From Prochlorococcus sp. AG-355-O17 (GTDB lineage: Bacteria > Cyanobacteriota > Cyanobacteriia > PCC-6307 > Cyanobiaceae), in assembly GCA_003280655.1 (NCBI GenBank), contig QCEK01000001.1, forward strand, positions 64,388-128,387: a stretch of DNA of 64,000 bases, written 5' to 3'. This document shows, in pieces, positions 50,787-62,566 of the stretch. The notes beneath the pieces were generated by a model that searched no databases, was not told where the DNA came from, and saw nothing but the letters and a program-made list of their open reading frames with translations. Each line of letters opens with the position of its first letter. Position 1 is the first letter of the stretch. The translations under genes were made by a program, and so were the position numbers.

Positions 50787-50882
50787 GAGCATTTAGGAAG
50801 TGCTTAGCTGGTTAAGTCAGAAAATCTGAATTAACTTGGTCGTCATGAGCTTGCCGGTGGGATACTTGCAAGCTCTTTCAAT
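50787..50882 (+). ncRNA. Candidate three-hairpin sRNA next to the hli cluster
   Basis: Stems AGCATTT/AAGTGCT, GGTTAAGTCAGA/TCTGAATTAACT and GAGCTTGC/GCAAGCTC, then a T-rich tail; -10-like TAGGAT at 50776; GC-richer than the flanks. Confidence 0.55.
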
Positions 50883-57128: not shown

Positions 57129-57230
57129 TTATTTCAAGTAAATAGATCCTCTATAAGTAAGCTTTATAATCTTTTCTTCTTGTTTTCTACAATATACGAA
57201 TGACTTTCCATTGAAATACATGTTTACCAT
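57129..57230 (-). CDS. 33-aa DUF4278-like peptide (Yfr6-type ORF)
   Basis: MVNMYFNGKSFVYCRKQEEKIIKLTYRGSIYLK; LTYRG motif; CAGGAG Shine-Dalgarno upstream. Confidence 0.75.
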   Translation of the reverse strand: MVNMYFNGKSFVYCRKQEEKIIKLTYRGSIYLK

Positions 57231-57248
57231 GATGCAGCTCCTGAACTT

Positions 57249-57311
57249 GCTCAAGTCCCCGTCCTATGGCTTGAGTCGTACTGCGGTCTATCAGATGGTA
57301 GATCGGACGAT
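57249..57311 (-). promoter_or_regulatory. Glutamine-II (Downstream-peptide) riboswitch
   Basis: AUCGUCCGAUCUA..UAGACCGCAGUACGACUCAAG-CCAUAGGACGGGGA-CUUGAG; stems UCUA/UAGA and CUCAAG/CUUGAG, pseudoknot CGUCC/GGACG; directly upstream of the LTYRG peptide. Family identity is from a recalled consensus. Confidence 0.8.
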
Positions 57312-57313
57312 TT

Positions 57314-57629: not shown

Positions 57630-57825
57630 CAATAATAATATTATTTAAGAATGAATATATCAATGAGCAAAAATACTGAAGCCATTGATATAACAAAAGT
57701 TTCGTAGCAAATTTATACAATAAACAACACCAACATATGCTCAGATACTCTTGCTCAATTAGCTTATTCAGAGTCAAATATTAAATTGGTGATCTAGTTA
57801 CCTTGCAGTGCTATTTTTCTTTTGC

Positions 57826-57894
57826 TAAAAAAATAGAGCGGACTAAAGTCCAATACTCCACGAGGATTTAGTCCGCTGCCTAAAGCCTGAGAGT
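57826..57894 (-). ncRNA. Candidate sRNA (about 70 nt) carrying a copy of the 58022 start-codon region
   Basis: TAAAAT -10 at 57904-57899; terminal stem GCGGACUAAA/UUUAGUCCGC followed by UCUAUUUUUUU. Confidence 0.6.
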
Positions 57895-58027
57895 GCAAAT
57901 TTTACTTAATTAATATGCAAGTATGCTTTATGAGGTAAATATCTTGATTGCGTAATAAATTTATTTTGTATATTGCTATTACAAAAATGATGAGTTTATT
58001 TAAATTAGTTACTAAATCCTCGTGGAG
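57856..58027. repeat. Exact 17-bp inverted repeat pair (57856-57872 and 58011-58027)
   Basis: CTCCACGAGGATTTAGT versus ACTAAATCCTCGTGGAG. Confidence 0.92.
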
Positions 58028-58141
58028 AAAGCTTTAGTAAATTTCTTTTATTGGTTACTGATAAGATCTGCCGAATCTCATTATGGAGAATCATTTGTAT
58101 CTGTAGAAGTTCCATCTAATTCAATCAAAGGTTTTTCTTGA
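58022..58141 (+). CDS. MEK..YW..SAES.YG family microprotein (39 aa, GTG start)
   Basis: MEKALVNFFYWLLIRSAESHYGESFVSVEVPSNSIKGFS; supported by the paralog at 62459. Confidence 0.7.
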   Translation: MEKALVNFFYWLLIRSAESHYGESFVSVEVPSNSIKGFS

Positions 58142-58286: not shown

Positions 58287-58496
58287 ATGCAATTTGATCA
58301 TTTAAATTTCAATGAAGATGATGGCCTCATGTCCATAGAAGATTTAAGGGCTTTACGTCTTCGAAAAAAGAAAATTGAAAGTGATAAGAAAGCTAGAAAG
58401 TATATCCTGGATATAAATCAAAGATATAGAAAAATGAGTACCAGCAAAAGTAATAACTTTTTAAGGAATATGAACCCTTTTAAAAAAGCCGCATAA
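58287..58496 (+). CDS. Hypothetical basic protein (69 aa)
   Basis: ORF track. Confidence 0.55.
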   Translation: MQFDHLNFNEDDGLMSIEDLRALRLRKKKIESDKKARKYILDINQRYRKMSTSKSNNFLRNMNPFKKAA

Positions 58497-62458: not shown

Positions 62459-62566
62459 ATGGAAAAATCATTTCTGAATTTTATTTATTGGATCCTATTA
62501 AAGTCAGCTGAAAGTTATTACGGAGATTCATTAAAAACAGAAATACCTTATACGCCTTATTTTTAG
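62459..62566 (+). CDS. MEK..YW..SAES.YG family microprotein (35 aa)
   Basis: MEKSFLNFIYWILLKSAESYYGDSLKTEIPYTPYF; paralog of 58022. Confidence 0.7.
   Translation: MEKSFLNFIYWILLKSAESYYGDSLKTEIPYTPYF

Follow-up and report, generated by a model that had tools for sequence, protein, structure and literature searches.

Small antitoxin RNAs with short complementarity to their target mRNAs are known from Escherichia coli and include those of the type I pairs IstR-1/tisB, OhsC/shoB, and OrzO/zorO (PMC3919570, PMC2887945). In Prochlorococcus, the genes of Yfr10/12/18 next to those of Yfr2/4/5 are an example of adjacent genes that code for complementary small RNAs (sRNAs; Steglich et al., 2008; PMC2518516). 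In CopA/CopT of plasmid R1 and in Sok/hok, whose partners are encoded in cis on opposite strands and are fully complementary, the loops carry complementary bases whose contact can extend and block initiation. Here, an arrangement with similarities to all of these was analyzed in a contiguous 64,000-nt stretch of the genome of Prochlorococcus sp. AG-355-O17 (contig QCEK01000001.1, positions 64,388 to 128,387 of the forward strand; hereafter the window), where a candidate gene for a hairpin sRNA is followed by an open reading frame (ORF) of 39 amino acids (aa). On balance, these features are best accounted for by a loop–loop antisense pair that would repress translation of a nearly leaderless mRNA, a model in which we place moderate confidence. 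Most likely, a separately transcribed antisense hairpin RNA acts in trans, and possibly also in cis, on a second hairpin that contains the start codon of the ORF.

As in the three E. coli pairs, a small RNA adjoins a tiny ORF and perfect complementarity in the range of 17–21 nt involves the 5′ part of an mRNA whose folding matters, and the locus is multi-copy and island-associated. Also in line with type I systems, the antisense RNA would cover the start of the small gene, by a computed pairing of 17 + 7 nt. However, the two genes are arranged in tandem on one strand and not divergently or with overlap, the predicted pairing involves the start codon of an mRNA with a 14-nt leader and not a long 5′ untranslated region, and the small RNA also exists in the absence of the ORF. 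With Yfr10/12/18 and Yfr2/4/5 the locus shares the organism group, the organization as separate neighboring RNAs with exposed complementary motifs, the presence of several copies, and the association with islands, but the sequences are unrelated (no Rfam match) and one of the partners is an mRNA, whose start codon would be covered. Complementary bases are present in both loops of the predicted folds, as in CopA/CopT and Sok/hok; unlike in these systems, the partners are separate genes with 17 + 7 complementary bases, and the kissing contact is a prediction.

The sequence at 57856–57872 (CTCCACGAGGATTTAGT) is the exact reverse complement of 58011–58027 (ACTAAATCCTCGTGGAG). With up to three mismatches allowed, the 17-mer had just two matches in the window compared to a chance expectation of 0.01, and two matches were reached in none of 100 shuffles. 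This perfect 17-nt inverted repeat had been noticed in an earlier inspection of the window that was based on its letters alone (the sequence-only reading), and the inverted-repeat listing, the mismatch search, and the shuffles confirm that it is real and non-random. The same reading had assigned one hairpin to each copy, and both hairpins were recovered here. The core of the repeat, CCTCGTGGAG, occurs four times in the 1.59-Mb genome, that is in three copies of the hairpin element and at the start of the 39-aa ORF, and this 10-mer has no other site genome-wide. Outside these four places the 9-mer CTCGTGGAG has a single genomic site (C11:6180). When the genome was scanned for further targets with 10–11-mers that tolerated G·U pairs, any signal was drowned by AT-rich chance matches.

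The left copy of the repeat is part of a 41-nt hairpin (57837–57877, plus strand) that is predicted to form the 5′ terminus of the sRNA, with A57837 as its first base. The hairpin consists of 11 bp (57837–57847/57867–57877), a bulged G, and 3 further bp closed by a 12-nt loop (AAUACUCCACGA); the perfect stem is thus one pair longer than the 10 bp stated in the sequence-only reading. Its computed fold energy is −18 to −19 kcal/mol, and it scored 73.1 bits against a covariance model of the element that was built from 29 distinct copies. The loop and 3′ arm contain the seed 17-mer CUCCACGAGGAUUUAGU (57856–57872, plus strand), which is complementary to the mRNA start region, and carry the family-invariant motif CUCCACGAGGAUUUAGUCCGC. 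The seed falls within a 21-mer (CTCCACGAGGATTTAGTCCGC) that is kept unchanged or nearly so (at most three mismatches, mostly none) in 97 of 121 genomes of the genus, with 1–3 copies each. None of 63 sister genera contained this 21-mer, a reversed control pattern had zero matches, and of the 64 genera in the family the covariance model matched this one alone. A DNA search revealed that the region 57812–57885 recurs in relatives independently of the ORF. For the copy in the window and for seven others Rfam offered no family, and the only hit, to the Yfr11 family, remained below the threshold. Judged by these searches, the element is a hairpin RNA family that is absent from Rfam and confined to high-light Prochlorococcus. 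Phage records matched neither the element nor the 39-aa peptide, and a full-text literature search with the motif strings of the element retrieved no relevant paper.

Which strand is transcribed determines whether the hairpin RNA resembles the mRNA or is complementary to it. According to the sequence-only reading, a divergent sRNA of about 70 nt is made from the minus strand, starting behind a −10 element TAAAAT (about 57898–57903) and ending with the hairpin and a U-tract, and acts as a decoy by mimicking the mRNA. In this genome the minus strand indeed carries TAAAAT upstream and the hairpin followed by CUCUAUUUUUUU, and the fold of this strand is just as stable (−23 kcal/mol). However, TAAAAT is not conserved in close relatives, which have AAAAAT or GAAAAA instead, and the apparent U-tract is the complement of the A-run in the plus-strand −10 element and is itself replaced by an A-run in the commonest subtype. 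On the plus strand, the hairpin is preceded by a promoter (57803–57831) with the −35 element TTGCAG (57803–57808), a 17-nt spacer, and the −10 element TAAAAA (57826–57831). In 63 unique copies belonging to five subtypes, the layout TTG(C/T)nn–17 nt–TAnnnn–~6 nt–(A)GCGG is kept upstream on the plus side, and the remaining upstream flank is unrelated between the subtypes. The stem itself varies asymmetrically, with an invariant 3′ arm and A→G and C→U changes in the 5′ arm, so that the plus strand of 28 distinct hairpins shows 42 G·U pairs as opposed to 5 A·C. Over 29 distinct copies 95.3% of the plus-strand pairs are standard, and about 40 of 406 stem cells, G·U on this strand, would turn into A·C mismatches if the minus strand were the RNA.

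Published transcription start sites of Prochlorococcus MED4 point in the same direction. Table S11 of Read et al. (2017; PMC5607370) lists an orphan start site at 770293(−) (p = 0, positional uncertainty 2) that coincides with the first base of the MED4 hairpin, a position that had been predicted from the sequence before it was looked up in the start-site tables. The RNA starting there begins with AGCGGACUAAAG and reads AGCGGACUAAAGUCCAUUUCUCCACGAGGAUUUAGUCCGCU, and the same promoter layout precedes it, whereas the published tables contain no site for the opposite strand in the interval 770190–770309. The MED4 coordinates were cross-checked against the ORF TibPMM1, which coincides exactly with a paralog of the 39-aa ORF (see below), and against Yfr11 and the tRNA at 776471, both of which were in place. 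Promoter conservation, the G·U strand bias, and the MED4 5′ end together argue for a plus-strand RNA that is complementary to the mRNA start, and we regard this strand assignment as very probable. The region 57803–57877 is thus most likely a plus-strand sRNA gene with a putative sigma-70-type promoter and a start at about A57837; with its own conserved promoter and a published 5′ end in MED4 it has the kind of start expected of a trans-acting sRNA. Since this RNA carries CUCCACGAGGAUUUAGU, which is antisense to the mRNA, a mimic of the mRNA would have to come from the wrong strand, and the decoy proposed by the sequence-only reading is highly improbable.

The right copy of the repeat overlaps the start of the 39-aa ORF MEKALVNFFYWLLIRSAESHYGESFVSVEVPSNSIKGFS (58022–58141, plus strand). 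Its GTG is the only possible start because an in-frame TAA is located at 58013. The length of the ORF is 38–43 aa in 39 of 42 unique loci, 40 of which have the GTG start, and variability is approximately threefold higher at third codon positions (0.172) than at the first two (0.065 and 0.046). This coding signature, in an ORF that is intact in most loci, indicates that the ORF is a real gene, as the sequence-only reading had assumed. Also confirmed was its paralog, a type-2 ORF of 35 aa at 62459–62566 (plus strand) that starts with ATG, has neither the hairpin nor the target site, and is about 55% identical to the 39-aa ORF over the first 32 residues. The MED4 homolog of this paralog is the expressed novel ORF TibPMM1 at 775611–775504(−) (Wang et al., 2014; PMC3898218). 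In MED4 (775504–775810, minus strand; locus L023) the 40-aa homolog of the ORF is followed directly by the type-2 paralog, about 660 nt downstream of a tRNA-Met gene, and the MED4 element lies 5.5 kb away from this ORF. TibYfr1 (770274–770560, unstranded) adjoins the MED4 element and spans a 40-aa ORF. Homologs of the 39-aa ORF are annotated solely as hypothetical proteins in Prochlorococcus strains and marine metagenomes, and Pfam and NCBIfam contain no family for the peptide.

A promoter for the ORF mRNA was recognized at 57973–58001 (plus strand), with TTGCTA (57973–57978) as −35 element, a 17-nt spacer, and TTATTT (57996–58001) as −10 element. The promoter block TATTGCTA(A/T)TAC is kept even in loci that lack the upstream element, and its spacing fits the MED4 5′ end 775810(−). 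This 5′ end is listed in all four start-site tables, is located 14 nt upstream of the GTG at 775796, and corresponds to the G in front of TTACTAAA; nothing is recorded at these MED4 coordinates in the supplements of PMC5069720 and PMC6778093. In the replete and N-starved tables the signal at 775810 was 153 and 839, respectively, at 12 h and 202 and 467 at 24 h (non-normalized values). By homology, the mRNA in the window is predicted to start at about G58008 behind TTGCTA–17 nt–TTATTT, with a leader of 14 nt that lacks a Shine-Dalgarno sequence. A predicted 5′-terminal hairpin follows at once (58008–58040, plus strand), in which TTACTAAA (58009–58016) and TTTAGTAA (58033–58040) enclose the GTG in the loop. 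A variant with GTGAC...GTTAAC, which gives a G·U pair, provides wobble-type support for this stem. The absence of a Shine-Dalgarno sequence and the position of the start codon in the loop bear out the sequence-only reading in these respects. The target 17-mer ACUAAAUCCUCGUGGAG (58011–58027, plus strand) comprises 11 nt of the leader and codons 1 and 2. These 11 leader bases are nearly invariant, in contrast to the adjoining leader and promoter, which diverge strongly between clades. Glutamate at codon 2 is encoded by GAG in 32 of 37 cases, whereas the genome-wide share of GAG is 22%. The leader and the first two codons are, by this pattern of conservation, constrained beyond coding.

The mRNA complement of the sRNA seed runs over the 5′ arm and the loop of the mRNA hairpin and includes GUG GAG. 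Seven further bases complementary to the sRNA are supplied by CUUUAGU (58032–58038), the distal arm already seen in the sequence-only reading, which matches ACUAAAG in the 5′ arm of the sRNA hairpin, so that 17 + 7 bp with an internal loop can form. In the predicted folds the central 8 nt are exposed in each loop, CUCCACGA in the sRNA and UCGUGGAG in the mRNA. Cofolding yielded −41.3 kcal/mol for the pair in the window compared to −29.2 kcal/mol for the separate hairpins, −38.8 compared to −25.3 kcal/mol for the MED4 pair, and −43.0 compared to −25.2 kcal/mol when the mRNA of the window was combined with the so-called core copy of the element in the same genome (see below), an overall gain of about 12–18 kcal/mol. 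Of 58 unique loci, 40, among them the one in the window, have the element and the ORF side by side at a distance of about 166 nt. The cultured strain AS9601 shares this arrangement, with the element at 1366016 and the ORF at 1366181. In adjacent pairs the target is always found downstream on the same strand, and this holds for three diverged subtypes with offsets of 146–291 nt or about 1.1 kb. A perfect mRNA site is present in 33 of the 58 unique loci, and 49 of them deviate by one change at most; both variants of the site that have become fixed in clades (CCUUGUGGAG and UCUUCGUGG) result from C→U changes and retain G·U pairing with the seed. Among genomes at least 90% complete, the element was present in all 29 that have the ORF and in 7 of 13 that do not (Fisher p = 3e-4, uncorrected for phylogeny).

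From these features a sequence of events can be proposed for the antisense model. The loop of the sRNA (CUCCACGA) would kiss the complementary loop of the mRNA (UCGUGGAG), and the contact would extend to a duplex of 17 bp (plus 7 bp) that buries the GTG start. This duplex would block binding of the 30S subunit and possibly mark the mRNA for cleavage. Other copies of the element, above all the nearly invariant core copy, could act likewise in trans, and read-through from the upstream promoter would give rise to a long mRNA isoform that sequesters its own start.

Such read-through is the essence of a stricter cis model, in which the transcript from 57837 extends into the ORF and its 5′ 17-mer locks the start region intramolecularly. 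This corresponds to the second hypothesis of the sequence-only reading, which had plus-strand transcription pair the two copies in the manner of type I toxin–antitoxin control; its plus-strand pairing comes closer to the present results than the decoy does, whereas its read-through and its toxin analogy are weakened. In favor of read-through, no terminator is found in 57878–58007, the spacing of about 166 nt is fixed within the subtype represented in the window, and a 235-nt plus-strand fold with a 17-bp long-range helix reaches −58.6 kcal/mol (z = −4.9), a value equaled by none of 200 shuffles. The part of this region that follows the hairpin (57878–57972, plus strand) may be a 3′ extension of the sRNA or a stretch of read-through into the ORF. 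However, the ORF has a conserved promoter of its own, and the sole MED4 5′ end is located 14 nt upstream of the GTG at a locus without an upstream element. Furthermore, more than half of the unique loci show an adjacent seed that has decayed, with no compensation, while the site remained intact, and other subtypes have a terminator-like structure behind the element: unlike the copy in the window, subtypes B and D and the MED4 variant carry a small GAAA or UAAA hairpin with a U-run after the main hairpin. A strictly cis-acting leader is thus improbable, and since the MED4 partners are 5.5 kb apart, read-through is no more likely than pairing in trans.

The analogy to type I toxins suffers in addition from the properties of the peptide. 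Small size (<60 aa) is combined in type I toxins with hydrophobicity and insertion into the membrane; the peptide encoded here has 39 aa and no helix of membrane length. Its only hydrophobic stretch has 11 residues (ALVNFFYWLLI), the mean hydrophobicity of the best 18-residue window is 0.32, and the C-terminal half is polar. Because of this short hydrophobic stretch the peptide does not resemble a type I toxin.

Several other observations weigh against the antisense model as well. A clear intrinsic terminator, consisting of a stem and a U-run, was not seen in 57878–57972. Two-sided covariation in the stem of the element is scarce (3 pairs, one sequence each), and the stem variation must therefore be taken as evidence on the strand and not as proof of the structure. 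The MED4 site 770293 is listed in one of the four start-site tables, and these tables also name the mature 5′ end of tRNA-Met (776471−) as an orphan start site, so that processed 5′ ends may be among their entries. Of 40 unique adjacent pairs, 28 have a perfect mRNA site and 16 a perfect adjacent seed; the adjacent sRNA copies drift and are conserved less well than the site. None of these pairs contains a compensatory double change in sRNA and mRNA, and joint decay of seed and site is weakly associated (Fisher p = 0.08). In complete genomes without the ORF (G026, G032, G062, G102, and G138), too, the core copy of the element hardly varies, and the element doubles as a leader or neighbor of other genes, namely hli genes and an ORF of 50–60 aa on C20. 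Finally, inverted duplication of a palindromic module may have left the complementarity behind as a relic: the core 10-mer differs little from its reverse complement (UCCACGAGGA versus UCCUCGUGGA), and inverted duplication of the hairpin module would therefore have yielded complementarity at birth.

Many of these points can be accommodated if the 5′ end of the ORF derives from a promoter-proximal hairpin that was copied in inverted orientation and functional pairing between the two RNAs does not take place. Each hairpin might then have a local role, with stabilization of the 5′ ends of short-lived transcripts, binding of a single protein to the quasi-palindromic core TCC(A/T)CG(A/T)GGA in DNA or RNA, and attenuation as possible functions. 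The near-palindromic core, the occurrence of the element as a leader or stand-alone unit elsewhere (at hli genes, small ORFs, and the core site), the invariance of the core copy without the ORF, the lack of compensatory co-evolution in adjacent pairs, and the fact that both transcripts begin exactly at the base of a hairpin are all consistent with this explanation. It leaves unexplained, however, why 17 contiguous bases that include loop bases and a non-ATG start have remained complementary between loci that have flanks of about 50% identity and that are 5.5 kb apart in MED4, and why the fixed variants are G·U-compatible. In addition, the G·U strand bias argues for a constraint on the stem at the level of RNA and not of DNA. 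We thus regard common descent of the two hairpins without functional pairing as possible but rather unlikely, and retain the antisense pair as the better explanation.

Besides the copy in the window, the genome of AG-355-O17 contains two further copies of the element. One of them (C2:57691–57735, plus strand) is the syntenic core copy, which hardly varies across the genus and has GAAUUUUUAAAGAUUC and a U-rich run behind it. This copy is convergent with a gene of 121 aa whose N-terminus resembles a ribbon-helix-helix domain as judged by eye alone, and a partly conserved NtcA-like motif (GTA-N8-TAC) is found about 38–51 nt upstream of the predicted start. Because the core copy stays invariant where the ORF is missing, its seed must be under some other constraint, and the copy adjacent to the ORF looks redundant. 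The third copy (C20:6063–6108, minus strand) is located 28–70 nt upstream of an ORF of 50–60 aa (…MSTNNRYIKGFIKTIRG…) with no terminator in between; it looks like a 5′ leader, and locus L075 has the same layout. Variants of the element also occur about 150–170 nt upstream of hli (high-light-inducible) genes, in locus L027 and in MED4 at 1350538–1350583 (minus strand; L071); a small GAAA-loop hairpin and a U-run come after each of them. Three other interpretations of the element were rejected: a repeat of the REP/RAYT type, since there are just 1–3 copies per genome; a peptide encoded on its reverse strand, since stops occur in other subtypes; and an ordinary terminator of a minus-strand gene, since such a gene is absent and the U-run is not conserved. 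At most loci of the subtype, an ORF of 69 aa rich in lysine and arginine (MQFDHLNFNEDDGLMSIEDLRALRLRKKKIESDKKARKY…; in the window 58287–58496, plus strand) is situated at a fixed distance 3′ of the 39-aa ORF, and the hairpin RNA, the 39-aa ORF, and the 69-aa ORF may form one cassette.

Among the known RNA families of Prochlorococcus, Yfr11/Yfr16 (RF02363) shows some similarity to the element. The match covers 57827–57970 on the same strand (plus) and reached 21.7 bits (E = 1.8) compared to a gathering score of 44. As in Yfr11/Yfr16, whose paralogous copies are likewise island-borne, a small 5′ tetraloop hairpin is followed by AUAgUCCACcaGAGaAUUUAaU (AUAcUCCAC--GAGgAUUUAgU in the family), but the similarity is confined to the first ~45 nt and the rest did not align. 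The element may thus be a distant relative of Yfr11/Yfr16 (MED4 loci L153 and L154). That MED4 may have a counterpart, as the sequence-only reading suggested, is supported by the orphan 5′ end and by the weak likeness of the seed to Yfr11/16, whereas membership in a catalogued Rfam family found no support. In MED4, no perfect target complementary to Yfr11/16 was found elsewhere; in the genome of AG-355-O17, the reverse-complemented 5′ motif of Yfr11 has two matches, with three mismatches each, on C10 at 6699 and 30169.

The low G + C content of the window, the presence of a full-length Yfr20 (RF02367, 87.4 bits; 50787–50874, plus strand), and a glutamine-II riboswitch (RF01704, 58.4 bits; 57250–57312, minus strand) with a small ORF behind it (57129–57254) identify the region as an island of a high-light Prochlorococcus. 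This riboswitch is divergent to the hairpin RNA gene and about 500 nt away from it. Since Yfr20 is a marker of genomic island 5 in MED4, the window can be regarded as island-5-like.

In Prochlorococcus, protein regulators are few and regulation depends to a large extent on small RNAs, and to our knowledge few of its sRNA–target pairs have been established. The locus offers an RNA family that is absent from Rfam and present in about 80% of the genomes of the genus, and the perfect 17-mer over the start codon makes the ORF mRNA an unusually clear candidate target. It also suggests that two orphan start sites of MED4 (770293− and 775810−) likely belong to a regulator and its target, and illustrates how control might be exerted on a conserved microprotein whose start is not ATG and whose leader measures 14 nt. 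The pair would be amenable to the E. coli reporter assays earlier applied to Yfr1 targets (PMC2796815). As a tentative extension, which we consider rather doubtful at present, a genus-specific core hairpin sRNA might control a set of island-borne genes, with the 39-aa gene traveling together with a spare copy of the regulator. If so, regulator and target would form a portable cassette that is silent on arrival and follows an addiction- or antitoxin-like logic without a classical membrane toxin, decay of the spare copy would set in after its role has passed to the resident core copy, and the mRNA of the microprotein and the hairpin leaders of hli and other small genes would titrate one another.

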